64,000 bases of DNA. It comes from a virus. Taxonomy: Duplodnaviria > Heunggongvirae > Uroviricota > Caudoviricetes. The first letter of the stretch is position 1. Each line of letters begins with the position of its first letter. Shown one piece after another: positions 34,120-53,864 of this stretch. The translations under genes were made by a program, and so were the position numbers. The notes below the pieces were generated by a model. The model was not told where the DNA came from. It searched no databases and was given only the letters and a program-made list of their open reading frames with translations. Location of the stretch: IMG/VR virus record IMGVR_UViG_3300033463_000003, one strand, 5' to 3'.

Positions 34120-36279
34120 ATGATAGTAATTAAAAGAGATGGCAAAAAAGTAAATTTTGATGCCTATAAGATTAGAAAAGCGATAGTTGGTGCTAATTCA
34201 AGATCAAATGAAATGTCCGAGGGCGAAATTGATCGAATTACAGAAATCGTAGTGAATAAATGTTTAAAGAATTCAGGTGATCTTAAAGTTGAAGAGATCC
34301 AGGATATTGTAGAAGATACGCTACTAAAAAGTAAATTTAATAAAACAGCTAAAACTTTCATCTTGTATAGGGATAAACGTACTAGAATTCGTCAAAGCAA
34401 GTCAAAGCTTTTAAAAGAAGTTGGTGATAAGCTTCTTGGTGTACATATTGTTAATCAGAATGCTAATGTTGATGAGAGGTCATTTGGAGGCCGTAAAGGT
34501 GAGGCTGATAGTGTTTTAACTAAACAGTATGCTTTGGACTACTGTATGTCCGAAATGGCTCGAAATAACCATTTAAATAACGAAATCTATATTCATGATT
34601 TAGATTCTTATGCTGTTGGTATGCACAACTGTTTATCAATTCCATTTGATAAGCTTTTGGCTGAAGGTTTTAAAACAAGGCAGACTGATGTTAGACCTGC
34701 AGGGTCAATTAATACTGCATTTCAGTTAGTAGCAGTAATATTCCAGCTACAATCGTTACAACAGTTCGGTGGTGTCTCTGCTACACACTTAGATTGGACA
34801 ATGGTACCATATGTACGTAAATCTTTCTATAAACACTATTTAGAAGGTGCTGAGTGATTAGGTGATTCTGAAACTTCCCAAATTTCGAAATCCACACCTA
34901 TTGATGAGTATCCTAGTGGGAAAGTGTATGATTATGCATTAGCTATGACCAAGAAAGAATTGGACCAAGCAGTTGAAGGTATGTATCATAATTTAAATAC
35001 ATTACAATCTAGATCAGGAAACCAATTACCTTTCACTAGTATAAACTATGGAACTTGTACATCTACCGAGGGCCGGATGGTTACCAGATCATTACTTGAA
35101 GGTTCACTAAAAGGTGTTGGTAAACTACATCGTACACCGATCTTCCCATGTGGCATATTCCAGTATATGAAAGGTGTTAATGACAAACCAGGAACACCAA
35201 ACTATGATTTGTATCAATTAGCACTTAAATCTACTGCAAAACGTTTATATCCAAATTATGCTAATGTTGATTGGTCAAACAATGCAGGCTACGATGTTAA
35301 TGATCCGAAAACTTACTTTTCCACTATGGGATGTCGTACTGCTAATGGTGCAGATATCAATGCTGAACCTGGTACAAATCCACAAACCAAAGATGGTAGA
35401 GGAAATATCTGTCCAGTAACTATTATCTTACCTACACTAGTGATGGAAGCTGGAAGAGATATAGAAAAATTCATGGAACTCTTAGATGTTAAGATTCATG
35501 AAGCAAAAGATATGTTGATCGAAAGATATGAGTATATTTGTAGTCAGTGTGCTGATTCTGCTAAATTTATGTATGAAAACGGTACGATGTTGGGCTACAA
35601 ACCAGAAGAAGGAATTCGTAGTGCAATGAAGCACGGAACTCTTGTAATTGGTCAGATCGCTTTAGCAGAAACACTAGAACTCTTAATTGGCAAGAATCAA
35701 TGTACAGCTGAGGGTATGGAACTTGCTAAAAGAATAGAACAATTATTTAAGGATAGATGTGCAGAATTTAAAAAAGAATATCACTTAAACTTTGGTGTTT
35801 ATTATACTCCAGCTGAAAACTTATGCTACACCGCAATGCAAAAGTTTAAGAAACAATATGGGGTCATCCCACATGTATCAGATCGAGAATATTTCACTAA
35901 TAGTATTCATGTACCTGTGTGGGAGGATGTTACAGCCTTTGAAAAGATTGACATCGAATCGCAACTTACTGGATATTCTAATGCTGGCTGTATTACATAC
36001 GTTGAGTTATCTGCAGCTGCAACAGGGAATTTAGAAGCTTTAGAAAGTTTAGTGAATTATGCTATGGATCACGACATTCCGTACTTTGCAGTCAACATTC
36101 CAAATGATACATGTTTAGATTGTGGCTATACCGGTGAATTTAACGACCACTGTCCAGAGTGTGGTAGTGGGCATATTCAGCAGCTACGTAGGGTTACAGG
36201 CTATTTAACTGGAAACTATAAAACTGCATTTAATTATGGAAAGCAAAAAGAAGTAGAAGATAGGGTGAAACATATTTAA
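34120..36279 (+). CDS. nrdD: Anaerobic (class III) ribonucleoside-triphosphate reductase, 719 aa (code 4)
   Basis: ATP cone VIKRDG, IYIHDLD, STMGCRT, TPAENL, CxxC..CxxC, RRVTGYL; TGA 34855 read through. Confidence 0.95.
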
Positions 36280-36938
36280 TGAATAAATTAACATTTACAT
36301 GAAGAGCACAACATATATTTAAATCATTACTTGCCGGTGTGTTAATTGCCTTAGCCGGAGGAACATACCTTTCATGCAGTAGTGTAGTTAGTGATCCAAA
36401 CTTATATAGGATTGTTGGATCATTCCTATTTTCTATTGGTCTGATAGCTGTGCTTGCATTAGATGCTAACTTATTCACTGGAAAAGTTGGTTATATTGAT
36501 TCCTGGCATAAATTCGGATTAGCCTGCGCATGTTTGGTATATAATTTACTAGTGGCATTCTTTATTGGGATGTTATATAGAGGAATTCATAATAGTGCAG
36601 CGATAGGTCCTTTTGCTCCAGAAAGTGCTAGGATGATGAAAACTTGGTATCAGATGTTTGCAGATAGCTTCGGTTGTGGTGCATTAATTTACTTGGCAGT
36701 AGAATTATATAAGAAAACAAAAAGCTTTATTCCTGTCATCATCTGTGTCATGGCATTTATACTTAGCGGCACCGAACACTGTATTGCTGACGCTTTTTAC
36801 CTAGGAGCATCACATTTATCCTGGAAAGCTGTTGGATACTTGGGGTTAGCAATTCTTGGAAATTCGCTTGGTGCTTGTGGTGTACATTGGCTACAAAGAG
36901 GGGCTGAATTCTTAAATGAATTACCTACTAATAGATAA
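36279..36938 (+). CDS. Formate/nitrite transporter (FNT) family channel, 219 aa (code 4)
   Basis: SLLAGVLIA, LFTG, FILSGTEHCIAD, LGNSLGA motifs; multiple TM segments; TGA 36300. Confidence 0.85.
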
Positions 36939-37455
36939 AACATGTATATCGGATGGCCCTGGCGTACGCGTTTCCTTATATATTAGTGGGTGCAGAAACC
37001 ATTGTGAAGGCTGTCATAACCCTGAGTCGTGGAATTTCTGTGTGGGTAAAAAATTCACTGAAGAAGTAGAAGATGTTGTGATCGGAGAATGCATGCGCAC
37101 GTATGTAAAAGGACTTACCCTATGTGGGGGAGACCCATGCGAACCGGAAAATCAGAAAGCTTTAGTGAATTTACTGAAGAAATTCCGATCAAAATGTACA
37201 GGAAAGGACATATGGTTGTATACTGGTTATGAGTTAGATGACCTGCTACCTAGTGGAAAAAAGCATACCGATTGTACAGATGAATTCCTTTCCTACATCG
37301 ATGTAGCTGTAGTTGGACCATTCATTCTTAGTGAAAGAGACATATCTGATGACAATCGTTGGCGTGGATCTAGGAATCAAAGAGTGTTGGATTTACCAAA
37401 ATCACTAGAAGCTGGTAAACCTATCATGCTTCCTGGAATTCCGAACAATAATTAA
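36916..37455 (+). CDS. nrdG: Anaerobic RNR activase (radical SAM)
   Basis: DGPGVRVSLYISGCRNHCEGCHNPESW, GGDP, WRGSRNQR. Confidence 0.95.
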   Translation: MNYLLIDKTCISDGPGVRVSLYISGCRNHCEGCHNPESWNFCVGKKFTEEVEDVVIGECMRTYVKGLTLCGGDPCEPENQKALVNLLKKFRSKCTGKDIWLYTGYELDDLLPSGKKHTDCTDEFLSYIDVAVVGPFILSERDISDDNRWRGSRNQRVLDLPKSLEAGKPIMLPGIPNNN

Positions 37456-37525
37456 AAAAATGAAAAAGGCTATTTACAAAATAGTCTTTTTTTGTTATAA
37501 TATTAATATAAGAGAGGAATATATT

Positions 37526-37900
37526 ATGGAAAGATTTGAATTTCACGCCGCATTTCAATTAACAAGAAAGATTATTTTTGAAGTGAGCTATTATACATTA
37601 GGAAGTAATGACTCAGCTTATTTTACAACTTCAGCTGAAGAGTTTAATCAACCTAAGACAGACTATAGTAGAGCTGGCCAAGCACAAGATGATTTGTGCA
37701 CCGGTGCAGCGAGAGCTTTCTATAAAAAGTGGGATCGCTTCCATCTTCATGAACTTAAAGATGAAGAGTTTGAAGAAATGGTTTCTGACTTAGAAGTGTT
37801 AAAACAAAACTATAACTACATTGAACATAAAACAGCAATTAGACCGGCTGATTTAAGTTTTAATGAAATTAAAAAATTATCTATGCAAAAGGTTAAATAA
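37526..37900 (+). CDS. Early hypothetical protein
   Basis: Promoter plus SD GAGAGG. Confidence 0.7.
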   Translation: MERFEFHAAFQLTRKIIFEVSYYTLGSNDSAYFTTSAEEFNQPKTDYSRAGQAQDDLCTGAARAFYKKWDRFHLHELKDEEFEEMVSDLEVLKQNYNYIEHKTAIRPADLSFNEIKKLSMQKVK

Positions 37901-37952
37901 ACTATTTACAAAAGTATTTAATCATGTTATAATATTAATAGAGGTGGAAAAT

Positions 37953-38192
37953 ATGAATAGTAAAATTAAAGAAAACGCACAAGCCGATTGGACAGATATG
38001 ATTATTAAATCTTGGACTTGGGCAAAACTAACTGATGAAGAAAAGAATAGATTTGGTGATGAAATAAATAAATCTATTACACAAAAAGAAGTTATTAAAG
38101 GAACTTATAGACAACGTTGGGAAATACTCAATGCTCTTTATTCAATGTTTTTAGAAGGACTTGGATATAAACCTATTGGCTGGAGGGAATAG
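37953..38192 (+). CDS. Early hypothetical protein
   Basis: Promoter plus SD GAGGTG. Confidence 0.7.
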   Translation: MNSKIKENAQADWTDMIIKSWTWAKLTDEEKNRFGDEINKSITQKEVIKGTYRQRWEILNALYSMFLEGLGYKPIGWRE

Positions 38193-38194
38193 CT

Positions 38195-38356
38195 GTGAAA
38201 ATTGAATTAACAAAAGAAGAAGCCGAAGTTTTAGAATCTTATTTATTTAGAAAGATTTGTGGATTAGAAGAAGCAGGATTAACAGATAGTCGCTGCTATC
38301 CTTTACTTTACTCAATTCGTCAAAAAATAAATAAAAAAATGTTTACAAATAAATAA
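38195..38356 (+). CDS. Early hypothetical protein, 53 aa (not in track)
   Basis: GTG after GGAGG. Confidence 0.5.
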   Translation: MKIELTKEEAEVLESYLFRKICGLEEAGLTDSRCYPLLYSIRQKINKKMFTNK

Positions 38357-38398
38357 TTATGCGATATAATATAAGTAGATAAGTAAGGAGGAATACTT

Positions 38399-38848
38399 GT
38401 GAATAAAAAGAATATAGTTACAAAAGCAAATATTGAAAAAGTTGCCGACTTCTTGGAAAAAGCATGTAGCTACTTTAAGAAAGATGGTAATGGATGCTTT
38501 CACTTCAACCTATCCGATGACTTAGCACTCTATATTGGTTGGTCTGATGGATATGATATGGCAGATACTGATATTATTAAGTCAACTGAAGGCCAAAGAA
38601 AAAATGGCTCTTGGACTTGTGGTTATGCTATCAATGCTGCGGTAAAAGTTAGAAATGACTTTGACTGTGCTGACTTCGATTTCTTAAATTATCCTTATTA
38701 CCCAGAAGATGGTGAAGCTTGGGATAATGGAATTTCTATGAGGCCAAATCAAACTCGTAGGGAATACAGACACGATGCAAGATGGTTTTTAGAAACATTT
38801 GTATCAATGACTAATGCTCACAAGAAAGGGGAAATTGTTTATGAGTAA
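38399..38848 (+). CDS. Early hypothetical protein
   Basis: Promoter plus SD AAGGAGG. Confidence 0.75.
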   Translation: MNKKNIVTKANIEKVADFLEKACSYFKKDGNGCFHFNLSDDLALYIGWSDGYDMADTDIIKSTEGQRKNGSWTCGYAINAAVKVRNDFDCADFDFLNYPYYPEDGEAWDNGISMRPNQTRREYRHDARWFLETFVSMTNAHKKGEIVYE

Positions 38849-39167
38849 TATTAAAGTAGTCGAAACAAAAGAAGAATTAAAAGATTTATACGACAAATGG
38901 GCAATGACTTGGGAAGGTTTAAGAGAACAAGATTTTGAAGAAGCCCTTGAATACTGTGGTGGTGAAGGTGCACAAGGTTATCTAATCAAAGGTAAAGTGA
39001 TGAACGACATTTGCCATTTAACTGATAGTAATGCTTATCCAGATGATCTCAACATCTTTGCAATCTATCCATTCAAAGGATTAGCAATGCAGTATGGTGC
39101 AAGATGGATGACTGACATCATTGATAACAATGCTTATCGTGAAGATTATCACCCATTTGCTGAATAA
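38841..39167 (+). CDS. Early hypothetical protein, paralog of 43802
   Basis: Shared ELKxLY..GGxGAxGY..CxL pattern. Confidence 0.7.
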   Translation: MSNIKVVETKEELKDLYDKWAMTWEGLREQDFEEALEYCGGEGAQGYLIKGKVMNDICHLTDSNAYPDDLNIFAIYPFKGLAMQYGARWMTDIIDNNAYREDYHPFAE

Positions 39168-39250
39168 AAAATTAAAAAAAATTAAAAAAGCCGTTTACAA
39201 ATGCGGCTTTTTATGTTATAATTATAATATAAGAAAAGAGGAAATAAATT

Positions 39251-39511
39251 ATGAAAGTTTACATTATATTTGATGCTTGTAGCGGTGAAGATTACAGCAC
39301 AGATGATCCAACAATTCTTTATGTTTCAACAAGCAAAGAAAAAGCAAAAGAATTCTTTGATGATGAAGTCAGCAATTGGGAAGATGGAATGGAAGAATAC
39401 GATTCTAACATTGATGAATATGCTGATGGCACACTCGTCTATGAATGCACTGACTTTGAAGGTGATTCGCATAGAATTATGAAATTAGTTGAAAGCGAGG
39501 TTGAGGAATAA
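39251..39511 (+). CDS. Early acidic protein
   Basis: Promoter plus SD. Confidence 0.7.
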   Translation: MKVYIIFDACSGEDYSTDDPTILYVSTSKEKAKEFFDDEVSNWEDGMEEYDSNIDEYADGTLVYECTDFEGDSHRIMKLVESEVEE

Positions 39512-39810
39512 TGGCAAAGAAAACTCAAGAACAAAAACTTATTGAACAAATGCTTCAATGCTTGTGGGACGTAAGTGATATTCAAATGGAACACATTGAT
39601 GATACTAATTATCGTGAGTTCTATGAAGAAGCCGCCGATGCACTTGATATGTATGATGGTGCCGAAGCTGATGCAGACAGACTCACCTATGAAAACTTAG
39701 ATGAGTATGTTACTTTAAGAAACGAATTAGTTGAACTTCTTAAAGCAAAAGGTATGTCTAAAGAAGAAAGATTAAACTTTATTAGACAAGAAACTTGCTG
39801 GGAGGACTAA
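39511..39810 (+). CDS. Early acidic protein
   Basis: TAATG coupling. Confidence 0.7.
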   Translation: MAKKTQEQKLIEQMLQCLWDVSDIQMEHIDDTNYREFYEEAADALDMYDGAEADADRLTYENLDEYVTLRNELVELLKAKGMSKEERLNFIRQETCWED

Positions 39811-39812
39811 GT

Positions 39813-40115
39813 ATGGGAACAGTTGACAGATTAAAAGAAAGACTTGAACACAAAGACTATATTGGTAAAGCTTGTCCAATTTGTGGTGCAGCTCCTACTC
39901 TAAAATCAAGAGGCTTCGACCCTTGGGGTGATATGGGTTATGATTGTTGCACAGAATTTTGGCTAGAATGCAGCGGTTGTGGTATTATTAAGGCAGGTGC
40001 TTATAACAATATTAATACTAAAGATGCAGAAGCTAAAAATGAAGCAATCAAAGATTGGAATGAGGTAGTTGATTATGTTGATGATCTCATTACTAAAACT
40101 CATAAAGAAAAATAA
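39813..40115 (+). CDS. Lar-like (restriction alleviation family) Zn-finger protein
   Basis: CPICG...CSGCG...EAIKDWN. Confidence 0.65.
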   Translation: MGTVDRLKERLEHKDYIGKACPICGAAPTLKSRGFDPWGDMGYDCCTEFWLECSGCGIIKAGAYNNINTKDAEAKNEAIKDWNEVVDYVDDLITKTHKEK

Positions 40116-40188
40116 TTAAAAAAGATTAAAAAGGGTTTACAAATAACCCTTTTTATGTTATAATATAAGTATAAGAGGTAAAAAATAT

Positions 40189-40437
40189 ATGACAAATTAC
40201 ACACACATTAATGATTGTTGGAAAGCAATTAGAGAAGCAAAGACAATTGAAGAAGTTGAAATGCTTTTTGATACTTTTCCAAGATGGTCTGGAAACTGGT
40301 TTGTCCAAATTGAAAATGATTCTTTCTATGGAAAAGTTTATGTTGTCTATAATACTTATTGGGACAACAACTTAGATCAAGAGGAAACTGAATGTGAAAC
40401 TCTTGAAATTGAAGTGCCAGATTTTGAAGAAGAATAA
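40189..40437 (+). CDS. Early acidic protein, paralog of 40846
   Basis: HIxxxW..TxEExE..NxYWDxNL shared. Confidence 0.7.
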   Translation: MTNYTHINDCWKAIREAKTIEEVEMLFDTFPRWSGNWFVQIENDSFYGKVYVVYNTYWDNNLDQEETECETLEIEVPDFEEE

Positions 40438-40513
40438 AAGAAACTATTTACAAATATCATAAAATATGATATAATTATAATAGAGAAAAGATAATAGGAG
40501 GAAAACAAAACCT

Positions 40514-40846
40514 ATGAAAAAATATGTAATTCATTTTATGAGCTTAGACGCACCATCTATTGAAGATGATGGTCTTGAAAGTGGAACTGGTTGTGGTGTC
40601 TATGAAAAAGCATTTGATACCAAAGAAGAAGCCGAAAAGTTTTTAGTTGAAGAACTCATCCCTCAAGATAAAGCAGAACTTGAAGAATGTTACGGCTTCA
40701 ATGAAAAAGAAGAAGGTTGGGAACCTACAGTTTATATTACTGTTGAAAAAGGTATGTGGGGAAGAAACACTTTAGTTGTTACCGACAAGTTTGATGCCAC
40801 AGAAATCAATATCACAATTTATGATATTGCGGAGGTAGAGTTCTAA
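40514..40846 (+). CDS. Early acidic protein
   Basis: Promoter plus SD AGGAGG. Confidence 0.7.
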   Translation: MKKYVIHFMSLDAPSIEDDGLESGTGCGVYEKAFDTKEEAEKFLVEELIPQDKAELEECYGFNEKEEGWEPTVYITVEKGMWGRNTLVVTDKFDATEINITIYDIAEVEF

Positions 40847-41064
40847 TGAAACATATCAGTGAGGTTTGGGAATTCTTAGATCAATTTAAGACTAAGGAAG
40901 AATTAGAAAAAGCATTTGGAGAAATTCAAAATAAGTTCGGTAGTTTTGAAATTACTAACTTGTCTACAGCAAAAGAAGACGGATACTTCGAAATCTGTAA
41001 TTCTTATTGGGATGAAAATCTTGGTGACTACGACTACGACTACCATTGTGTAGAAATTTGTTAA
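40846..41064 (+). CDS. Early acidic protein, paralog of 40189
   Basis: TAATG coupling; shared motif. Confidence 0.7.
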   Translation: MKHISEVWEFLDQFKTKEELEKAFGEIQNKFGSFEITNLSTAKEDGYFEICNSYWDENLGDYDYDYHCVEIC

Positions 41065-41136
41065 AAAACTATTTACAAAAGCAACATTTTGTGATATAAT
41101 TATAATATAAGATATAGAGTATAAGGAGGAAAAAAT

Positions 41137-41376
41137 ATGTACTTTAATGTCGAAATTGAACTAATTAGAGATGATGGCTGTAATGTGCTATACATCGCTC
41201 ACGATGGTTCTTCTGGTTGCGAATATGTGTTTGAGACCAAAGAAGAATTAGCCGACTACATCAAGGATTATGTTGATGACATCGTTGAAGAAGAAGTTGA
41301 CTTAGACGAACTCAAAGAAGAATATCCTGATGAAGACGAAGACGACGAAGACAGTGAAGATGAGGATGACGACTAA
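41137..41376 (+). CDS. Extremely acidic early protein
   Basis: Promoter plus SD; poly-D/E tail. Confidence 0.7.
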   Translation: MYFNVEIELIRDDGCNVLYIAHDGSSGCEYVFETKEELADYIKDYVDDIVEEEVDLDELKEEYPDEDEDDEDSEDEDDD

Positions 41377-41612
41377 TGAAAACTTATTATGTAATGTATT
41401 GGAATGATCGTGAAGATTATCCCGTTGCAGTATTTGAAGTTAAAGCTGACTGTGAGGAAAATGCAGAACAAATTGCATTTCTTGAAGGCGGTAGAGACTA
41501 CGAAGATGACTGGCCTCTTCTAATTGAAACTAACATAAATGAAAGTCGTTTAGCCAGATACAAAAATTCAGTTTGGACTAAATATAAAGTTTGTAAAGGA
41601 GAACTGATATGA
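41376..41612 (+). CDS. Early hypothetical protein (under code 4 the track's TGA end would read through a short distance)
   Basis: TAATG coupling at start; ATGA overlap with next gene. Confidence 0.6.
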   Translation: MKTYYVMYWNDREDYPVAVFEVKADCEENAEQIAFLEGGRDYEDDWPLLIETNINESRLARYKNSVWTKYKVCKGELI

Positions 41613-41803
41613 GACGAGGTGGAGACAGTTATTACGTCTTAGTTAATAAAGACGGTGAAGAGTACACAATTGAAGATTATTGTGATACCTACGTTATGGA
41701 CTATGACAGTTGGGAACTCGCAGAGCAAGAACTAAAAGAAATGCTTGAAGAGGAAGAACTGTTTGAAGAAGACGGTTGGCACGTTGAAAGACGTCGTTGG
41801 TAA
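41609..41803 (+). CDS. Early acidic protein
   Basis: SD AAGGAG; terminator at about 41815-41845. Confidence 0.65.
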   Translation: MRRGGDSYYVLVNKDGEEYTIEDYCDTYVMDYDSWELAEQELKEMLEEEELFEEDGWHVERRRW

Positions 41804-42030
41804 AATAAAAAATAAAAACCCGATAAATAAGTCGGGTTTTTATTTTTCAAAAAACTATCGGAACTAAATTTTTATCAGACATCCCGACCCTGTACGGGTA
41901 ACTTTTTACTAAATTAGTGGTTTTTAGCTTTCCGCCAGATTCATCAGATTCGGCGGAAGTTAATTTTGGAAAAAAAGAGTTTACAAATTGGTTAATATGT
42001 GGTATAATATAATAAGAGCGAGGTATAATT

Positions 42031-42228
42031 ATGAAAACAGTGGAGAGCTTATTAAGAGAAATTGGCATCAAAGCTAATTTAGGAACTTGGACTGACGAAC
42101 AAGGTCATCACGCTATTTGTTATACAAGAAAACAAGGAAACTCGTGGGTTAGAATATTAAAAGATGCCGGTTATAAAGCAAAACTCGTTTATGATAATTA
42201 CGCTTACATTGTGATATTTAATAAATAG
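42031..42228 (+). CDS. Early hypothetical protein
   Basis: Promoter plus SD GAGG. Confidence 0.65.
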   Translation: MKTVESLLREIGIKANLGTWTDEQGHHAICYTRKQGNSWVRILKDAGYKAKLVYDNYAYIVIFNK

Positions 42229-42241
42229 GAGGAAATAATTT

Positions 42242-42541
42242 ATGTATTACAAAGTTAAAATTACTTCGGTTGATTATTGTGTTGAAGAACAAGATGTGTG
42301 TGAATATGTTGACAATGATCCAGAAATTGAAGAAGATAGTGAAGAATACTATGACGCAATTCACGCAAAGATTGAAGAAGTTAAAAGTAGATTGCCACAA
42401 GAGCTTATTTTGGAAGTTGAATGCGATCGTAAAAGCTTAGAAGATGTTTTAGTCGATGCTATCAGTGAAGAGACGGGTTGGTTGGTAAATAACTTCACAT
42501 ATAAAATCTTAGAAAGAAAATTTTCCAAACATTATTTATAA
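42242..42541 (+). CDS. Early acidic protein, paralog of 29825
   Basis: SD AGGAGG; shared LPQEL..ISEETGWL. Confidence 0.75.
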   Translation: MYYKVKITSVDYCVEEQDVCEYVDNDPEIEEDSEEYYDAIHAKIEEVKSRLPQELILEVECDRKSLEDVLVDAISEETGWLVNNFTYKILERKFSKHYL

Positions 42542-42608
42542 AAAAATGAAAATAGGGCATTTACAAAAATGCTCTTTTATGTTATAATATATATGTGAGG
42601 CGAAAAAG

Positions 42609-42977
42609 ATGACAGAAAAAGAAATTAAAGCAGCAAAAGATTTGTTGCATATGAGATACTATGGCGATGGTTGCATTAGACCAGGAGTCAAGTGGCTAAA
42701 AGAAGACGAGATTTTTGAAGAAGAATTATCTTGTAGAGAGATGATTAACTCTATTCTTATCTATGGCGGGAGTTGTGAGAAAGGCAGTTATCAATACGAT
42801 AAGTACTTAAAACCATATACTGAAAAAGAAACTTGGCACGATGGCTTAATTACATTAACCAGACTTGATGAACTAATCAAAGAACAAAAAGCTGATATTG
42901 CAAAAGCAGAAATTGGCTTTGCAGGTTATGACTCTGAAGGAGTCAGTTATAATTATTGTAAATGGGCGGATGAATAA
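42609..42977 (+). CDS. Early hypothetical protein
   Basis: Promoter plus SD. Confidence 0.7.
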   Translation: MTEKEIKAAKDLLHMRYYGDGCIRPGVKWLKEDEIFEEELSCREMINSILIYGGSCEKGSYQYDKYLKPYTEKETWHDGLITLTRLDELIKEQKADIAKAEIGFAGYDSEGVSYNYCKWADE

Positions 42978-42978
42978 T

Positions 42979-43182
42979 ATGGAACTCGTTAAAGTTAATA
43001 GCTCCAACATTAAAGCAGTTGGTTGGGAAAATAATACATTGTTTGTTGCTTATAATTCTGGCATTTATATGTATGAAAATGTAAAGAGAGAATTATACGA
43101 ACAATTATTAAATGCTGAATCAAAAGGTAAGTTTGTTTGTGAGAACATAAAACCTAATTTCAGTTATAAAAAAGTTGAATAA
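42979..43182 (+). CDS. KTSC domain protein
   Basis: VNSSNIKAVGW..LFVAY..YMYENV..LLNAESKGKF. Confidence 0.85.
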   Translation: MELVKVNSSNIKAVGWENNTLFVAYNSGIYMYENVKRELYEQLLNAESKGKFVCENIKPNFSYKKVE

Positions 43183-43401
43183 TTCTTTATTCATATATAC
43201 TTCCTTTCGGTAAAAGGTCAGGCTGTGGTCTGGCTTTTTATTTTGCAAAACTATCGGAACTAAAAATTTACGTTCTGTGATCCCGATGTTGAAGCTAAAA
43301 CCACTAAAAGTGGTGAGTCACGGTCGAGGGCCGCGGTCTGCGCAGATTCATCTAGATATGTGGATCGAAAAACTGTATAATATAATAGAGAGGTTTTTAT
43401 T

Positions 43402-43731
43402 ATGAAAGTTAAACTTTACAAGAGGCTAAGAGGTCACGATGCAGCGCAGCTATTGGAATCGATCACAGAAAATACTGATTTAGTGAAAGTCCAAGCATCA
43501 GACTACGATGTGGAACCGTATGTGGTTGATTTAGATTTCGAAGATCGAATCATTTTTGGTAAAGATGAAATTTTATCTAATCCTAAAAAAGTGATTGGCA
43601 TTATAGATATGGAGATGTTCATGAAGAACCACATGTGGCAGGAATTCGAATATGGGGATATAGTGGAATTTGAAGACCACCGATTCATCAAAGCTCCGAA
43701 AGCTTATGTGGCCGTCGAAATAAAAAATTAA
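43402..43731 (+). CDS. Hypothetical protein
   Basis: TGTATAAT promoter at about 43374 plus SD. Confidence 0.65.
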   Translation: MKVKLYKRLRGHDAAQLLESITENTDLVKVQASDYDVEPYVVDLDFEDRIIFGKDEILSNPKKVIGIIDMEMFMKNHMWQEFEYGDIVEFEDHRFIKAPKAYVAVEIKN

Positions 43732-43801
43732 AAAAATTTAAAAAAACTATTTACAAATACTTTAAAGTACGTTATGATGTAATATGAAGGAGGAGAGAGT
43801 T

Positions 43802-44158
43802 ATGACAAACATTACTACAATTACGACTCTTATGGAACTAAAGAAGCTCTATCTCGATGGTGCTTATGTTTTAGAGAATCCATCTGATGAGTATAGCTTA
43901 GAAGCACAAGTAGAGCGTTTTGGTGGAACTGGTGCAGTAGGTTATACATTTACTGGTGAATTTATTTATACAGTATGTGGTTTACCAGAAAGCTCAATAT
44001 TACCTAAAGATAAACTTTATTTGGTAATTGTTCCAGCAAATGAAAGTTATAAAAACTCGATCTTAATTTCACTCAAAGATTTAATTTTTAGATTTAGTGC
44101 TAGAACCGGATTTAATTTATTTGCGGCTCGTAGAATTGTTCAAGAAGAAAAAGAATAA
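43802..44158 (+). CDS. Early hypothetical protein, paralog of 38841
   Basis: SD AGGAGG. Confidence 0.7.
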   Translation: MTNITTITTLMELKKLYLDGAYVLENPSDEYSLEAQVERFGGTGAVGYTFTGEFIYTVCGLPESSILPKDKLYLVIVPANESYKNSILISLKDLIFRFSARTGFNLFAARRIVQEEKE

Positions 44159-44234
44159 AAAATAATTCAACTGACTATTTACATTTATCTCGAAATATGT
44201 TATAATATTATTAAGAAAAGAGGTAAAGTAAATT

Positions 44235-44684
44235 ATGAAAAATAGACCATACGAAGAATATAATGCAATTCCAGTCCTTGAAAGACTTGAAAGAATGATT
44301 GAGGCAGGCCATCCACGATGGATTAGAGATGTTTATGATGATTTAAGCATCTTCGACTGGTGGCCAGAGAGATTAACTATCACTCACATGAAACAAATGA
44401 GAACCTTCTTAAAAGAAGCTATTAAGTTAGGTTATACTGGTTATGTTTGCTTTAAGGTTGGAGCTTCTGGTTGTGCTAATGGTATGTGGGCTTGTAAAGT
44501 CCCTACAACAACAGGATATAGTCCCGATGGTGAAACTATTTATAGAAGTTTTACTCCTGATTATACATATTATGCTGTTCAAGACAAGAAGGGCCGCTGG
44601 CTTCCATCAGAAGAAGTAGATGGCAACAGATTTGACTCTTGCAAAACTATTAAACAACTTGAGACATTAGTTGCAAGTTTATAA
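44235..44684 (+). CDS. Early hypothetical protein
   Basis: Promoter plus SD. Confidence 0.75.
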   Translation: MKNRPYEEYNAIPVLERLERMIEAGHPRWIRDVYDDLSIFDWWPERLTITHMKQMRTFLKEAIKLGYTGYVCFKVGASGCANGMWACKVPTTTGYSPDGETIYRSFTPDYTYYAVQDKKGRWLPSEEVDGNRFDSCKTIKQLETLVASL

Positions 44685-44761
44685 AAAACAAAAAAATGAA
44701 AAAAACCTATTTACAAAGTAGGTTTTTTATGTTATAATATAATAATAAGGAAGGTAAGGTT

Positions 44762-45277
44762 ATGAAAAAGATTAACAAGAAGACAAGCTTCGCATTTAGA
44801 AAGAACATTTATTTATTGGGCAGAGACGAGGACGGTATTAACTACTGGCTCGAAGAACCTACGTTCGATTGTGGTTGGTATTGGGGTTTAGGTTATATCG
44901 AAACTTATACTAATAATCGTAGTCCTCAAAATTCTAAAGACATTCAGTCTCACGAACACTTTATCTCAAAGTTTTTAGATAAGGGTTATGATACTTATAG
45001 AAACTTTTTCAAGGAATCGACATTAGACGAAAAAGAAATTTGGAGACTCTTAGAACTTATGAGTACTTCTTATACATTAGAGAAAGCAGCAAGACTTTTT
45101 GAGAAGGGGTCAGCGTGGGTTGCTAAGAATGATTGCTACGATGTAATTAAGGATCAAGACTTATACGAAGAAATAGTAAAAGTAAAACTTCCAGCAGTCA
45201 ATTCAGCTATTTGTAATTTGCTTGGAGGCAATACAACTCCAGACTACTTTACAAAGATGGTAAAGATTGAAGATTAA
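44762..45277 (+). CDS. Early hypothetical protein
   Basis: Promoter plus SD; FDCGWYWGLGY motif. Confidence 0.75.
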   Translation: MKKINKKTSFAFRKNIYLLGRDEDGINYWLEEPTFDCGWYWGLGYIETYTNNRSPQNSKDIQSHEHFISKFLDKGYDTYRNFFKESTLDEKEIWRLLELMSTSYTLEKAARLFEKGSAWVAKNDCYDVIKDQDLYEEIVKVKLPAVNSAICNLLGGNTTPDYFTKMVKIED

Positions 45278-45328
45278 CTATTTACAAGTTAATCTTTTTG
45301 TGTTATAATATTATAAGAGGTGAAGAAT

Positions 45329-45916
45329 ATGAAAAAAAGATTATTTCAAAAATCAGGAGTTGACATTTGCTCCGCAAAATCAATGTTTAATTTTATCAAT
45401 GAACATTTTACTTATTGGACAATGAATAGTTGGAACAGGTTAGAGTCAATTGCTAACAATGTTAAACTTTATAATTTACATTTAGACGGAGATTGGACAG
45501 TTGCTTTAAGTTATCTTTATGACGAAGAAGATATTGGTGGACTCCAGCAAGAAATTAGAGATTTAATTTGGATGTGGGAAAAAGATCATCAAGGATACTC
45601 ATTAGGATTTAATGGGCGCAGTGATGGTTATTTAGTTATATATAATCATGATAAACATTCTGGTCACGTTAACTTTAGAAACATTTTACCAGACGATTTA
45701 GTTGGCTTCGATACTTATGAAGACTTTAAGGAAAACTTAAAAGAATGGTATGGTTGGACAGTTAAAGATTATTTACCAGAACTAAGAGAATATACAGAAC
45801 TAATTAGAAGTTTTGATAAACTTTGCGATGACATTAGAGCATTGGTTAATGAATATTCTTTAATGGACTACGAAGCAGACAAGAAAGCTTTTGACTTCGA
45901 GAATGGAGTAGAATAA
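45329..45916 (+). CDS. Early hypothetical protein
   Basis: Promoter plus SD; GFNGRSDGYLV motif. Confidence 0.75.
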   Translation: MKKRLFQKSGVDICSAKSMFNFINEHFTYWTMNSWNRLESIANNVKLYNLHLDGDWTVALSYLYDEEDIGGLQQEIRDLIWMWEKDHQGYSLGFNGRSDGYLVIYNHDKHSGHVNFRNILPDDLVGFDTYEDFKENLKEWYGWTVKDYLPELREYTELIRSFDKLCDDIRALVNEYSLMDYEADKKAFDFENGVE

Positions 45917-45917
45917 A

Positions 45918-46259
45918 ATGGAAAAAGAAAAATTTGAAGAATTTGAAGAAGATGTAGAACTAAGTGAAAGACCTATCACTTATGAAGTCTGGATTTTAGG
46001 CTACGACGAAAATTATGAAGATAATGATTTTGAATTTTTATTGGACGATGGTTATACAGAACTCGTCGAAGCTAAAAAGTGTTTTGAATATTTCACTATT
46101 CCAGAAAATTTAAAAGCTTATCTCGATCTTAAGAATGTTAAAATTCCAGAAGACACAAAACATATCAATCTTTTCTTAGAAGAATGTGTGCAACTTCCAG
46201 ATTCAGACCTTGTAGAATGCGATGACATTTTAGAAGAAGTTGAAGTGGAAATTCTTTAA
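45918..46259 (+). CDS. Early acidic protein
   Basis: SD GGAG. Confidence 0.7.
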   Translation: MEKEKFEEFEEDVELSERPITYEVWILGYDENYEDNDFEFLLDDGYTELVEAKKCFEYFTIPENLKAYLDLKNVKIPEDTKHINLFLEECVQLPDSDLVECDDILEEVEVEIL

Positions 46260-46325
46260 AAAACTATTTACAAGCACAAATATATATTGTATAATATAAT
46301 ATAGAATTATAATGAGGTGAACTTT

Positions 46326-46610
46326 ATGAGAAGTAAATATTTAGGAAGAAAGTTCGGACGTTGGACCGTAACTCGTGCAGCAAAAACAGAAGATGGTAAT
46401 CATACCAGATTTTATCTAACAAGAACAACTCACGACGGAGCAATTAAAACAGTTGCACTTCGCGACAATGAATTAACCGCTTTAAGTCGTGGTGAAAAAA
46501 CAATGCAAAGTTTACTTAAGGGTAAACAATTTCAAAGAGACAGATTTCCAAGCAGAGAATATAGAAACTCAGTTTGGTATACTTATAAAACTAATGGTAG
46601 CTTAGAATAA
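46326..46610 (+). CDS. Basic hypothetical protein
   Basis: Promoter plus SD GAGGTG; YLGRKFGRWTV. Confidence 0.7.
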   Translation: MRSKYLGRKFGRWTVTRAAKTEDGNHTRFYLTRTTHDGAIKTVALRDNELTALSRGEKTMQSLLKGKQFQRDRFPSREYRNSVWYTYKTNGSLE

Positions 46611-46639
46611 TTTTAAGCTACAGAAGGAAGGTAAAGGGT

Positions 46640-47533
46640 ATGGCAAATGAACTTTTTGTGCAGTCAAGAACTTATGCACAGCTATTAAAACAGAATAAGG
46701 GCATTGACTATTCCACTTGTAATGTAGATACATTAGCAGATGGTTATTGTGATGCAACAGATGCTGGAGATGAATATGAAAGAACATTATTTATTTCCGG
46801 ACTTGTTTTACGTTTTTGGTTTGCAGTAAAGAAGATGCAAGAGAAGTCACCGAATTTAGGATATGATCAAGACGAATTCGCTGACTGGCTTTATGAAGCA
46901 CTAGAATATGCATGTAAATACAGAGCATGGCGCGATCCTGATAAAAAAGTAAATGCGCAACAGGCAATAAATCAATGTATTGAAACTATCAGGCTCCAGC
47001 ATTATTATCAGCTAAATTTACAAAAACATAAAACTAATTTTAGCACTATTTCACTTGATACTCCTGTCGCAGGAACAGATGAAGAATCATTAACTTTATT
47101 TGACCAAACAGAAGATGAACAAGCAGAACAAGATATGAAAGAAACTAAAGGTGCACTTACAGCTCGTGCGATCGTGCAAGCTTTTATCGATAAGAAAGAT
47201 TTAGTGGGTGCAGTTATATCGGACCTCATCGCGTTCAATGATTTCAATAAAGAAATTAAGACAACTAATAAATTTATTGATGATGAAACTGGTGAAGAAT
47301 GCAAAACTACTAACTACAGTTATGAGTTTTGGCCATTCAAAGCAGTTCAAGCAATGAAGGAACTTCCAAATGATTATGCAGAGTATTTTATTGAAAACTA
47401 CAATGTTAAACCAGAAGCTATTATTGCAGTAATAGAGGCCATTAGACGCGCGAATAGTGCTAAACTATATAAATACTTAAGAGACTTTTTAAGTAAGGCT
47501 AAAACTACGTTTAAATATCAGGAGGCTTGTTAA
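46640..47533 (+). CDS. Putative phage sigma-factor-like protein
   Basis: Region-2-like DQDEFADWLYEALEYACKY and region-3-like TISLDTPVAGTDEESLTLFDQ. Confidence 0.5.
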   Translation: MANELFVQSRTYAQLLKQNKGIDYSTCNVDTLADGYCDATDAGDEYERTLFISGLVLRFWFAVKKMQEKSPNLGYDQDEFADWLYEALEYACKYRAWRDPDKKVNAQQAINQCIETIRLQHYYQLNLQKHKTNFSTISLDTPVAGTDEESLTLFDQTEDEQAEQDMKETKGALTARAIVQAFIDKKDLVGAVISDLIAFNDFNKEIKTTNKFIDDETGEECKTTNYSYEFWPFKAVQAMKELPNDYAEYFIENYNVKPEAIIAVIEAIRRANSAKLYKYLRDFLSKAKTTFKYQEAC

Positions 47534-48246
47534 TGAACTTAGATATTTTATCAATTCGAAACTGTACGTTGAACATAAATGAGAAGCTTATTCAGATGAT
47601 CGGTTTGGATACCGCAGCTTACTTAACAGTGGTTTTAGACGCACTTCATCAGGCTGTAAAAAAGAACAAAGTTAATGATGAAGGCTTTTTCAAACTCGAC
47701 AGAAAGTATGCAACTGAAAGAACAGGCTTATCAACTACAGAACAGAAGCATTGTGATGAAAGACTCATGGCTCTCAACCTAATGAAGCGTGATCCAGAAG
47801 CACTAAATTCGTTATCTGTCGATGTTGGAGCTGTTGTACAGTTCATTCAACAGGATGATGCGAAATTCATTGATCAAGTTAAGTTAACTTTAGCAAAAAC
47901 TAAAAAAGTAGAAGCTGAAGAATATAAAAGAGAACAAATTATTAGAATTGCGAAGGCACAGGTGAAAACAACCGATTTTGAAATTCGTCAATCTATTTTC
48001 GATTGGATAGAAGCGATGGATGGAACTCTAAAGAAAGCACAAGTTGGTTTGGTTGAAGACGCAGTTGATAATTATTCTAAAGATAAACAAACAAGAATTA
48101 AAATTTTTCAAATCTTAGCAATTAACAACTGGCGCGACCCGCAGTGGGCAATTCAAAGATACGAAAGAGACTACAAACCTAAAGGTTTAGGGGAACAAAA
48201 GACAGCAACCTCTCTCGCAGACGTTAATATGAGAAAGGCATTCTAA
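47533..48246 (+). CDS. Putative replication initiator (N-terminal winged helix)
   Basis: LIQMIGLDTAAYL..GFF..ERTGLSTTEQ pattern of phage initiators. Confidence 0.55.
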   Translation: MNLDILSIRNCTLNINEKLIQMIGLDTAAYLTVVLDALHQAVKKNKVNDEGFFKLDRKYATERTGLSTTEQKHCDERLMALNLMKRDPEALNSLSVDVGAVVQFIQQDDAKFIDQVKLTLAKTKKVEAEEYKREQIIRIAKAQVKTTDFEIRQSIFDWIEAMDGTLKKAQVGLVEDAVDNYSKDKQTRIKIFQILAINNWRDPQWAIQRYERDYKPKGLGEQKTATSLADVNMRKAF

Positions 48247-48249
48247 ATT

Positions 48250-48528
48250 ATGATAAATAAAAATTATTTAGTTGATTATTTATCCAACTCGCGAGAATAT
48301 GATAATTTGGAAAAGAGAATTATTGAATTAGAAGATGCAATTCAAACATGCGATGATTGCATCGAGGCTCTCGAAAATTCCAGTAAAGATTTCACAAATA
48401 GTTTGGATAATCTTGCAAGACAAAGAAACTTACTTAACTTGGAAAGAATTGAACTTGCAATTAGAAAAAATAAGATCGAAAAAGATATGTTATTGTTCGA
48501 AATAGACCAGAGCACAACATCTGAATAA
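48250..48528 (+). CDS. Coiled-coil hypothetical protein
   Basis: Operon spacing; terminator at 48544-48575. Confidence 0.6.
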   Translation: MINKNYLVDYLSNSREYDNLEKRIIELEDAIQTCDDCIEALENSSKDFTNSLDNLARQRNLLNLERIELAIRKNKIEKDMLLFEIDQSTTSE

Positions 48529-48766
48529 ATTAGACCTTCCTTCAAGCTCAGCAGAATATCACTGTTGAGCTTTTTATTTTGCGTACAGTACGATGTACAG
48601 TACGTACAGTACAGCTACAGTACTTCCTGAAATTCCACTAATAAGTAGTTTATTGGGTCACCATAAATTCGATGTTGATGTGTGTGGTTTGTGGAAATAA
48701 AAATTAACAACTAACTATTTACATTTAGGGTCAGTTGTGTTATAATAATAATGTGAGGTAAATAAT

Positions 48767-48940
48767 ATGAGTTCAATTGTTAAAAAGTTAATTCAAGAGA
48801 CGTGGGTCGACTACTTCTCCGGAAACAAAGAAGAAATCTTAAAACAAGTTGATAAAGAAGCATTGGAAGAATATCAAAGTGCAATGTTGAGACTTGAAAC
48901 TGATTTTGATTTTCAAAGAGAGTTAGGAATTGGAAACTAA
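48767..48940 (+). CDS. Early hypothetical protein, 57 aa (not in track)
   Basis: Promoter 48718 plus SD GAGGT. Confidence 0.6.
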   Translation: MSSIVKKLIQETWVDYFSGNKEEILKQVDKEALEEYQSAMLRLETDFDFQRELGIGN

Positions 48941-48941
48941 T

Positions 48942-49319
48942 ATGCCTATTGATTATAATGATTGGAAAGAGTTTGTTCAAGGCAAATTAAATTGTAAGGT
49001 AAAACAAGAAGATAAAGTTCGAACTTGTATAAGGCTTGATACTCAAACTTTAATTAACTCATTAGACGGGGAGTCAAAACAGTACGTTTTGGACGTTGCA
49101 AAAGGGCAGGCAGAGAAGTATGGAAATCTAAATGTCTGGTCTGCGGTAATTTATGACTATCATGTTGAAATAAATATGGGTGAATGGTTTATTGCTGTTT
49201 ACTTTAGTCCAGAAACTCATAATGCAACTAACTGGGTTGGAAATGCAAGAGGTTCAAAGTTTGAACTACAACTTCTACAAATTGCAAAAGAACTTCATCA
49301 ACAACTTCAAGATTTATAA
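48942..49319 (+). CDS. Early hypothetical protein
   Basis: Coupled to previous gene; terminator follows. Confidence 0.65.
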   Translation: MPIDYNDWKEFVQGKLNCKVKQEDKVRTCIRLDTQTLINSLDGESKQYVLDVAKGQAEKYGNLNVWSAVIYDYHVEINMGEWFIAVYFSPETHNATNWVGNARGSKFELQLLQIAKELHQQLQDL

Positions 49320-49344
49320 GAACTGAAACTTCAGTTCTTTTTTT

Positions 49345-49715
49345 TATTCCAATAAAAATTCGATCCGCCGAAATTGATGAATCTGGCAGAAAGTCAAATC
49401 CAACTAAATTAGTGAAATTGTACTATCTTCGTTCCTGATCAGATTTTGAGGTGACAAGTCTGATGAAGAGTTCGGTAAGACTGATGATTGTACAGATGAA
49501 TTCCGATGTTGTACAGATGAAAAAGCTTTTTAGTGGTTTTTTAGCCTGATGCATGTACGATGCGCAGCGTACTGCAGAGCGAACTGCGCAGACGATTCCG
49601 ATCCTGTAACAGGATCTGCGCAGATGAATTAGAATCGTTTAGTAGTTAGTGGTTTTAACTTCACCTCCACATGAATTCGGAAATTTTTCGTGGCATATTG
49701 GTTTAGTCGAAAAAA
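49345..49715. repeat. Non-coding palindrome-rich island with three TTAGTG-core motifs
   Basis: Cores at 49409, 49530, 49646. Confidence 0.65.
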
Positions 49716-49781
49716 AGTTAATTTGGTTATTTACAAATTAAGACTAATATGGTATAATATAATAAAGAGAGGAAAAGAAAT

Positions 49782-50225
49782 ATGAAACCAAAAAGAACTG
49801 CAATTACAAATTATTATGATTGTTATGAAGTCGGTTATATTAAATTAGGTTGCGTTGGTAATGGTAATCCAGACCATCAAGATAGAACAGTTATTACCAG
49901 AACATTAAATCTTGGTGGTGTTCAAAGACTTGCTAATGTCTACGGAATTAAATTTGTAAACAATGATGATATTTACGCAACTGGTTATTATATAAAAGAA
50001 GTTGAAACAACCAAAGACCCTGATACTTTTGTAAATGAATTAGATAAACTAGATGAAGTATTTATGGAAGAAGCGGAATATAGACAAGCACTTAAACAAA
50101 TTCGTCAAATGTCAGACACACTAAATTATGGTGTATTATCTGAAGATGAGTGGAATAAGCTATCAAAAGAACTAGATGTTCTTGTTGAAAGGTCAAAAGA
50201 ATTAGACAGAAAACTTCATTATTAA
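49782..50225 (+). CDS. Early hypothetical protein
   Basis: Promoter plus SD. Confidence 0.7.
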   Translation: MKPKRTAITNYYDCYEVGYIKLGCVGNGNPDHQDRTVITRTLNLGGVQRLANVYGIKFVNNDDIYATGYYIKEVETTKDPDTFVNELDKLDEVFMEEAEYRQALKQIRQMSDTLNYGVLSEDEWNKLSKELDVLVERSKELDRKLHY

Positions 50226-50308
50226 GTTGGTAAATAAATACCAACTTTTTATTTACAAAGTCGACATTATGTGGTATAATATAAATATAAGAAAGAAGGA
50301 AACTAATT

Positions 50309-50524
50309 ATGACATTAAGAGATAGTTTGTTAAAAAAAGTTCCGGCAGATAATTATGTTAAAATTTATGACGAGGACTGGTTTGTCGCAATGTGTTATGT
50401 TGATGATGAAGATTTATTCATTAGATATATGGACGACGAATTATTAAGTCGTGAAGTTGACATTATTACAATGGTTGAAGATGGAGATTTTACAACTGAT
50501 ATTTATGATATTTATTTGAAGTAG
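50309..50524 (+). CDS. Early acidic protein
   Basis: Promoter plus SD. Confidence 0.65.
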   Translation: MTLRDSLLKKVPADNYVKIYDEDWFVAMCYVDDEDLFIRYMDDELLSREVDIITMVEDGDFTTDIYDIYLK

Positions 50525-50534
50525 GAAATAAATT

Positions 50535-50663
50535 ATGGAAATGTTAAGTAAGATTATAATTCAATTATTGGCATGCTTCATTGGTTGGCAAATTGGTAAA
50601 TTTATCGCAATTAAAATAATGATAAGAAAGGCAATGAAAGAAAACAATGAAGAAGAATTATAA
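50535..50663 (+). CDS. Small membrane protein, 42 aa (not in track)
   Basis: IIIQLLACFIGWQIGKFIAI hydrophobic segment. Confidence 0.5.
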   Translation: MEMLSKIIIQLLACFIGWQIGKFIAIKIMIRKAMKENNEEEL

Positions 50664-50787
50664 AGTTATTGTTTTGAATATGGGGGAGGAACTTGAAACT
50701 CTACATTATCATAAAACAATAAAGCAAATTAAAAAACAATATAATCTTGAGAAACTTGAGATTGTATCTATTGAAGAGATTAACTAA
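50647..50787 (+). CDS. Small hypothetical protein, 46 aa (not in track)
   Basis: Open frame ending in a terminator hairpin. Confidence 0.4.
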   Translation: MKKNYKVIVLNMGEELETLHYHKTIKQIKKQYNLEKLEIVSIEEIN

Positions 50788-51043
50788 ATTGGTTAATCTT
50801 TTTTATTTACAAAGTTGGTAAGTCGCGCTACGATGTACATGATGAATGTAGATGAAAGCTTTTAATTCCACTAAAAGAAAGTTAAGCTAATATATCTGAT
50901 GCAGCTGTACGAGATGCTCTTGAAATTGGACTGATTTGAACTTCACAAGAAATTCGAAGAGTTGAAAAAAAGTTAATTTGGCTATTTACAAGTTGGGGTA
51001 AATATGGTATAATATAATAAAGAGAAGAGAGGAAATAAAATTT

Positions 51044-51370
51044 ATGAAATTTAGAAACTATCATCAAGTCTTAAAAGCAAGAGGTTATAAGGTAAGGGAG
51101 TTGTCAAAGTATCAAGGTTTAAATGTATTCGAGAAAGAACATTTATATAATAAGATAGTTTGCACAATTATGAAAGATAGTCACGGCAAGGGGCAAACAA
51201 TAACTTTCAATATCTACAATACTCTTAGAACTCCAAAGAATATGATTGAGTTTGGAGACGCCGAATTTGATAGAAGTTATCTTGTTAAAGAGGCTAAAGT
51301 TATTGTTGAGGCTTTTGAGAAACTAAGAGAGATGAAAGCACCTGTAAAATATATTTATTGTTTCAATTAA
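51044..51370 (+). CDS. Early hypothetical protein
   Basis: Promoter plus SD. Confidence 0.7.
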   Translation: MKFRNYHQVLKARGYKVRELSKYQGLNVFEKEHLYNKIVCTIMKDSHGKGQTITFNIYNTLRTPKNMIEFGDAEFDRSYLVKEAKVIVEAFEKLREMKAPVKYIYCFN

Positions 51371-51399
51371 GGTTAGATGAAAATCTAATCTTTTTTTAT

Positions 51400-51855: not shown

Positions 51856-51942
51856 TAATAAAATAAAAAATATTTCAACTTGCTATTTACAAATAATTAA
51901 AAACATGTTATAATATATATAGAAAGTGAGGTAAGACAAATT

Positions 51943-52968: not shown

Positions 52969-52983
52969 GGTGGAATAGCTATA

Positions 52984-53548: not shown

Positions 53549-53550
53549 TT

Positions 53551-53862: not shown

Positions 53863-53864
53863 TT

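Follow-up and report, generated by a model that had tools for sequence, protein, structure and literature searches.

Tryptophan codons TGA and TGG are split between genes behind early-type and late-type promoters in a probable T4-like phage of the gut

Phages in which a stop codon has been reassigned were described from human and animal guts, those of cattle included, with TGA or TAG as the recoded codon (Borges et al., bioRxiv 10.1101/2021.08.26.457843). Their hosts were predicted to use the standard code, the late and lysis genes were found to be recoded and the other modules to be standard, the reassigned codon was depleted as a stop and the suppressor tRNAs were phage-encoded; a switch of code part-way through infection was explicitly proposed (Borges et al., bioRxiv 10.1101/2021.08.26.457843). 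The present study deals with a stretch of 64,000 nucleotides from the IMG/VR virus record IMGVR_UViG_3300033463_000003 (Caudoviricetes), analysed over its whole length and hereafter called the window, in which a long block of small genes behind host-type promoters has all its tryptophan (Trp) codons as TGG, and genes behind a late-type motif use TGA as well. We take the window to be part of a large T4-like phage of rumen or gut anaerobes, whose host most likely belongs to the Bacillota and has the standard code.

The window phage resembles the Agate and Jade clades of Borges et al. in its in-frame TGA codons read as Trp, located mostly in structural and late genes, in the almost complete loss of TGA as a stop, and in a large genome from the gut of cattle or sheep; the suppressor tRNA, which those clades encode, was on our side seen in two relatives. 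Unlike in the account given of Agate and Jade, the split can here be read against three promoter types defined by sequence, and a few TGA occur in replication genes. That account has reportedly appeared in Nat Microbiol in 2022, and TAG-to-Gln recoding in crAss-like and Lak phages is said to have been found by Yutin et al. and Peters et al. The latter phages are alike in a reassigned stop codon confined to late genes, in suppressor tRNAs and in a standard-code host, and differ in the codon and amino acid concerned, in their Bacteroidota hosts and in the lack of sigma70 and Shine-Dalgarno type signals. Phage T4 uses the standard code and has early sigma70 promoters and a late motif, TATAAATA, that is read by a phage sigma factor. 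T4 and the window phage have in common strong host-type early promoters ahead of small genes for take-over, baseplate wedge homologues and a late motif that is short, AT-rich and -10-like and immediately precedes virion genes. The late motif of the window phage is, unlike that of T4, TGCTAAATTAT, its TGA is recoded, and no late sigma factor was identified in it.

The initial annotation of the window had read the split as a phage-induced UGA-to-Trp switch that gates replication and morphogenesis. It restates the proposal of Borges et al. and is largely right, and it is overstated as to a strict partition by promoter and an adaptive timer. Since both the phenomenon and its meaning are already published, the window phage adds only an example, the value of which lies in its cleanness, as early genes, late genes and genes behind a third, -10-only type of promoter can be told apart by sequence alone. 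New are a widespread clade and a link, at the level of sequence, between the codon split and three promoter types, kept in at least four divergent phages, so that the hypothesis of a code switch during infection becomes directly testable once the host is found.

Codons were counted over a curated list of 85 genes on the + strand, which carries all real genes of the window; G+C is 28-37%, and many long frames are broken by TGA only. Longest-frame calls under code 4 gave false TGA-rich open reading frames (ORFs; e.g. 41217-41642 and 40687-41064), and curated or scored calls were used instead. For 37.5-48.5 kb the initial annotation had given about 68 Trp codons, all TGG, and we counted 69 TGG and no TGA in the 29 genes (3332 codons) of 37460-48528. 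The TGA-free block is longer than had been stated and reaches 55565 instead of 48528: the 43 genes of 37460-55565 (4794 codons) hold 92 TGG and no TGA, and the 42 genes in the rest of the window (13,974 codons) hold 124 TGG and 60 TGA (Fisher p = 2.6e-10 for the shorter and 1.1e-12 for the full block, each against the rest of the window). Sense TGA is absent from every gene between the first and the last early promoter. Early genes had also been said to stop at TAA or TAG with the ORF at 41376 as the exception, and this one (41376-41612), which ends in TGA, is indeed the only real exception. Being free of sense TGA, the early genes are readable in either code and hence, as previously argued, translatable before any switch.

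The early block has a high G-over-C skew, and composition was considered as the cause of its preference for TGG. It was ruled out because other NNA/NNG pairs show no such bias and TGA is frequent off frame: twelve other pairs are A-ending at 66-95% in the early block and the rest alike, and the two other frames of the block contain 83 and 346 TGA. The number of TGA per gene is graded, from 0 in early genes through 1-5 in middle genes to as many as 13 in late genes. An expectation of 1-2 TGA in each replication or metabolism gene agrees with the zinc-ribbon protein (2), the helicase, nrdD and the FNT-like gene (1 each), and fails for nrdG, which has none; the claim of 12 or more in structural genes is exact for the two LamG proteins, with 12 and 13. 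Even in late genes TGA makes up only 33-44% of the Trp codons, when comparable A-ending codons reach 80-95%.

The reading of TGA is based on alignments. Residue 140 of the LamG protein 13296-16760 is encoded by TGA and falls, in a PDB alignment, on a conserved W of the pentraxin PTX3; it corresponds to TGG in the paralogue 19792-24915, and at two further sites of these paralogues TGA stands opposite TGG or TGA. The single TGA of nrdD (residue 246) is opposite Y in 37, W in 26 and F in 5 of 80 homologues. Against the distant relative on contig C113, described below, TGA is opposite TGG at seven conserved sites. The helicase, NrdD, the baseplate and fibre proteins and the LamG proteins are whole only if TGA is read through, and all of them stop at TAA or TAG. 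Judged from these positions, TGA is Trp, and not Gly as in code 25.

Three classes of promoter were distinguished. TTTACA-N16-18-TATAAT has 23 matches in the window where 0.45 would be expected, with 22 on the + strand (Table 1), and Shine-Dalgarno sites are strong downstream of these early promoters. The late-type motif TGCTAAATTAT has 8 matches against 0.24 expected, all 8 on the + strand and directly upstream of genes; it precedes the baseplate and fibre operons, and both motif and context are alike in C113. A third, weaker class consists of a terminator hairpin followed by TTATTGTATAAT without a -35 box ("-10-only") and stands before the helicase, the methylase, a deformylase-ligase group and a CCA-enzyme group; the bare TTATTGTATAAT motif is not more frequent than expected by chance. 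In-frame TGA is found in 6 of the 8 TGCTAAATTAT units (TGA/TGG of those listed: 19/33, 14/22, 1/8, 11/2 and 6/7) and in none of the other 2; one unit has no Trp codon at all, and 31047-32714 has 0 TGA and 4 TGG. The -10-only units (methylase, deformylase, ligase, CCA enzyme) are TGA-free except for the zinc-ribbon/helicase pair. TTTACA-type promoters with strong Shine-Dalgarno sites are what would be expected of a Bacillota-type host rather than of Bacteroidota.

The same split was found in relatives. A scan of species genomes with NrdD yielded C113, a 44-kb contig binned in the metagenome-assembled genome (MAG) of a 'Bacilli bacterium', which has in common with the window the helicase (64% identity), NrdD (75%), NrdG, the FNT-like gene and at least eight early genes (29-70%). 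Searches of that MAG (G001) turned up neither other contigs of the phage nor a group I intron. From homologues of the early protein 46640-47533, 49 kb of the scaffold R720 from sheep rumen and 21 kb of a contig from JGI were obtained. The window was pooled with three distant relatives from rumen and gut metagenomes (30-75% protein identity); genes were called with a caller that combined a codon model with Shine-Dalgarno sites and scored TGA and TGG neutrally, each gene was assigned to the class of the nearest upstream motif, and TGA was counted outside the last 12 codons. In this contingency test of TGA against TGG by promoter class, which the initial annotation had suggested, the ratio differs by class: 8/265 behind full early promoters, 15/244 behind -10-only elements and 86/110 behind the late motif, early versus late giving p = 2e-29 by codon and 3e-13 by gene. 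Most of the 'early' exceptions are either tiny doubtful ORFs or genes of the nrdD operon, which has a weaker motif of its own, CTAAATTA. At conserved Trp sites the early-block orthologues of the window and C113 are TGG/TGG in 16 of 16 cases, whereas the helicase, nrdD, nrdG and zinc-ribbon orthologues show TGA, in one phage or both, at 8 of 12 sites. Early genes thus retain TGG actively, and elsewhere the codon can vary freely.

A gene for the UGA reader was located in relatives. In the ENA gene table, a gap of about 400 bp without genes lies about 9.7 kb downstream of the window, just before genes for a 49-aa RHH protein and a Stealth-family protein, and in two relatives (one of the three pooled and a further contig) a tRNA with anticodon UCA is encoded in the same neighbourhood (L102:13722-13818 and L126:5528-5624). 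Both align over their full length with tRNA-Trp(CCA) of the Bacilli MAG and differ only by C34->U and an insert of 23 nt. Each gene is a unit of its own, with a -10-like TTATTGTATATTATAAT, an encoded CCA end and a hairpin terminator, after which a TGCTAAATTAAT motif serves the next gene; with its own -10, the suppressor could be made by host polymerase without phage factors.

The insert itself, 23-24 nt long and placed between anticodon arm and T arm, folds as a stem of 4 bp with a 7-nt loop, and where an anticodon would stand this loop has CCA, which is the usual anticodon of tRNA-Trp. When IMG/VR was scanned with a pattern for tRNAs of this form, 99 loci (L130-L228) were returned, 77 of which ARAGORN called as tRNA(tca) with a long arm; it mislabels these extra-arm genes as tRNA-SeC. 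Among 80 distinct IMG/VR inserts, a 7-nt NNCCANN loop on a stem of 4 bp or more is seen in 36, with 26 different stems, and the trinucleotide next in frequency reaches 4. As its sequence suggests, the extra arm may be a second or decoy anticodon arm that presents tryptophanyl-tRNA synthetase with the identity element it normally recognises, the reading of UGA being left to the true anticodon. No description of an extra-arm tRNA(UCA) was found in a full-text literature search.

As to the code of the host, which is the least secure part of the reading, the MAG that holds C113 encodes RF2 (prfB, 494 bits, above the curated cut-off) and tRNA-Trp(CCA), and none of the 23 tRNAs detected in it has the anticodon UCA. 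In-frame TGA is absent from 79 of the 80 nearest NrdD genes, even at 30-36% G+C. A code-4 host would predict TGA as the main Trp codon throughout an AT-rich genome, and its share is 0% in the 43 early genes and 33% in the rest. The few in-frame TGA of early and -10-only genes lie within the last 12 codons more often than chance would have it (9 of 32, where 9% would be expected; p = 0.0016), which fits residual use of TGA as a stop with a back-up stop nearby. Taken together, the MAG with RF2, the TGG-only NrdD homologues, the low use of TGA, the phage-encoded UGA reader and the terminal clustering of TGA are indirect evidence for a host with the standard code.

We consider it probable that early genes are kept TGA-free because they are read before the phage tRNA-Trp(UCA) exists, and that TGA is tolerated in middle and late genes. 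The phage would make its own tRNA-Trp with anticodon UCA, in the window phage as in the relatives. Host RNA polymerase would transcribe the early genes at once from the strong TTTACA-N17-TGnTATAAT promoters; with these genes translated before the suppressor tRNA is available, selection would keep sense TGA out and stop TGA almost out. Middle genes, for replication and nucleotide metabolism, would tolerate 1-5 TGA, and the many TGA of the late, TGCTAAATTAT-driven virion genes would be due to AT pressure turning TGG into TGA where the suppressor is already present. Genes with TGA would not be completed until the code changes.

Several observations weigh against this explanation. Within the 64-kb window no tRNA was found. 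The promoter classes are sequence motifs only, from which the timing of expression would follow, and the fit of the split to them, although highly significant and kept in relatives, is less strict than first proposed: TGA occurs in the helicase, whose -10 is of host type, and is missing from two of the eight late-motif units, -10-only units are mixed, and 64.2-71.5 kb, beyond the window end, is TGA-free. The promoter-class rule is a very close first approximation and not exact. The binning of C113 into a MAG is weak evidence of infection. Finally, TGA positions in late genes are uniform and no different from those of TGG, with no enrichment at the 5' end.

The last point bears on the idea of a translational timer. 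In the initial annotation the UGA switch was itself such a timer; the uniform late TGA positions, which swap freely with TGG between relatives, are what drift would give and speak against it. An evolved timer, in which the number of TGA sets a graded delay beyond promoter control and gates first replication and then virion assembly, is in our view rather doubtful. It would account for the graded series of 0, 1-5 and up to 13 TGA, for the two short late genes with TGA at every Trp (57554-58138 and 59260-59466) and for the weak-looking -10-only element before the suppressor gene of the relatives, and it has been published as a hypothesis for other clades; however, the late genes have a promoter motif that gates them in any case, TGA sites are neither conserved between relatives nor enriched at the 5' end, and nrdD has 1, 0 and 1 TGA in three relatives. 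What the data show is a constraint on the early genes, which cannot use TGA, and no selection of late TGA for gating. The data fit late TGAs as AT-driven drift wherever the suppressor is present, the translational lock being a by-product which may or may not be used. We think it unlikely that there is a programmed multi-step clock, in which a weak -10-only suppressor promoter, maturation or charging dependent on the CCA-displaying extra arm seen in relatives and the TGA number per gene would act as a graded delay over three promoter classes; if it were true, a translational delay would be added on top of those classes.

Alternatively, the split might follow the level of expression and not its time, if suppression of UGA is inefficient in competition with host RF2, so that strongly expressed genes (for early take-over and major virion proteins) purge TGA and low-copy proteins (fibres, baseplate, enzymes) tolerate it. 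The modest share of TGA among late Trp codons (33-44%, against 80-95% for other A-ending codons) and the presence of TGA-free late-motif genes such as 31047-32714 (0/4) would agree with this, but 0 TGA among 92 Trp codons in 43 early genes that differ greatly in kind is not easily accounted for by level alone, and -10-only promoters, presumably weaker, also drive TGA-free genes; it seems quite improbable, and the two explanations, by level and by time, can be compatible. Least of all do we expect the host itself to be code 4 (e.g. a Mycoplasmatales-like rumen bacterium), with early genes lacking TGA on other grounds, for instance because they were acquired recently from phages with the standard code: TGA is not the stop of any late or middle gene, the nearest NrdD relatives are from Bacilli and Erysipelotrichales, the neighbourhood of Mollicutes, and one Tenericutes-labelled contig has TGA in nrdD, but TGA is the dominant Trp codon of AT-rich code-4 organisms and here reaches only 0% and 33-44%, the TGA-free early state is kept across phages of 30-70% identity, such a phage would not need its own tRNA-Trp(UCA), the MAG holding C113 has RF2, and known Mollicutes phages are small when the clade of the window reaches 200-234 kb.

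A JGI metagenome contig represents the same phage (99.99% identical) and extends 7.6 kb beyond the window end, where it encodes a peptide deformylase, a DNA ligase and a CCA-adding enzyme. Related contigs are labelled as coming from sheep-rumen metagenomes. A blastn search of INPHARED gave no match, exact-word scans of IMG/VR and JGI contigs gave none either, protein scans of IMG/VR with a tail protein, a 375-aa protein and the CCA-adding enzyme as queries found no relatives, and PHROGs and Pfam gave no name for most structural proteins or for any early protein tested. For annotation of this clade, genes should be called under code 4; early genes will look standard. The features of the window are collected in Table 1.

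Table 1. Features of the window with their coordinates and, where counted, in-frame TGA and TGG codons
Feature	Coordinates	Strand	TGA/TGG	Remarks
TGCTAAATTAT 11-mer	5247..5257; also starts 17507, 25765, 31002, 55972, 57538, 61160, 61792	+		
Baseplate wedge and tail-fibre proteins, operon	5274..17446	+	19/33	Behind motif 5247; homologues recognised
LamG-domain giant protein, first of 2	13296-16760	+	12/11	
Late unit	17585..24915	+	14/22	Behind motif 17507
LamG-domain giant protein, second of 2	19792-24915	+	13 TGA	
Four further TTTACA-type promoters	27230, 30907, 30913, 32906	+		30907/30913 overlap
Zinc-ribbon protein and SNF2-type helicase	27712..29766	+	3/4	Behind -10-only element (TGTATAAT near 27680)
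nrdD, FNT-like channel, nrdG	34120..37455	+	2/10	Anaerobic ribonucleotide reductase NrdD/NrdG
Host-type promoter array, n=18	37473..51914	+		CTATTTACAA-N14-TGnTATAAT; nearly all with extended -10 TG
-35 starts of array	37473, 37905, 38342, 39194, 40136, 40447, 41072, 41980, 42560	+		
-35 starts of array, continued	44178, 44710, 45281, 46267, 48718, 49730, 50252, 50985, 51886	+		
Early block, about 43 small genes	37526..55565	+	0 sense TGA/92 Trp codons	Mostly without known family; TAA/TAG stops
Early gene with TGA stop	41376..41642	+		TGA 41610-41612 in ATGA overlap with next start; TAG 41640-41642, 10 codons on, as back-up
Last gene of block	55569..55949	+		In-frame TGA 55926-55928, seven codons short of TAA
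Late unit	57554..59466	+	11/2	Behind motif 57538; 57554-58138, 4/0; 59260-59466, 5/0
GIY-YIG protein	within 57554..59466	+	2/2	
151-aa protein and EcoRI-like methyltransferase	59625..61107	+	0/12	After terminator plus TTATTGTATAAT

The first gene of the early block probably starts at 37526 and not at 37460, because the promoter 37473-37501 sits inside the ORF called from 37460. At the gene that ends in TGA, the ATG of the next gene (41609) has a good Shine-Dalgarno site, AAAGGAGAA, 6 nt upstream. A second ATGA stop (43402, in the ORF 43277-43405) was considered and rejected, as 43277-43405 is a promoter region without a gene. The early region 48529-52983 has gene-poor gaps of 238-765 nt between promoter-led cassettes. 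CTAAATTAGTG-like motifs occur at 41909, 49404 and 51571, and similar CTAAATT(T)AGT(G/A)TG sites are present in C113 at 28002, 32101, 34046 and 34154.

The early protein 46640-47533 (297 aa) has no Pfam match and more than 400 metagenome homologues, some of them on contigs of 200-234 kb, which makes it a convenient marker of a widespread clade of large phages. This clade was not found in the reference phage collection or, for the proteins tried, in IMG/VR.

A more distant T4-like phage (L128:6923-7597, with Gp23 and a T4-type portal) has the Stealth-family gene in common with the group. Its eight genes that were checked have no sense TGA, and in one gene the stop is a TGA that overlaps the start of the next; there are therefore relatives with the standard code. 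Four further NrdD matches on MAG-binned contigs (L067, L075, L076 and L078) have nrdD with in-frame TAG, the match being split near residues 404/405 or 564/565. From their sequences these are probably TAG-recoded phages with inserts in nrdD (introns or inteins), binned into bacterial MAGs.

In the late unit behind motif 57538, the GIY-YIG endonuclease-like gene is flanked by the two short genes that have TGA at every Trp. An intron endonuclease is preferentially recoded in Agate phages (Borges et al., bioRxiv 10.1101/2021.08.26.457843).

It should also be added that the membrane protein encoded between nrdD and nrdG (36279-36938) belongs to the formate/nitrite-transporter (FNT) family (Pfam E = 6.5e-22), and that the gene is kept in C113 at 40% identity. 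Formate can serve class III ribonucleotide reductase as a reductant, and for this reason a phage formate channel beside the genes of that enzyme is suggestive.

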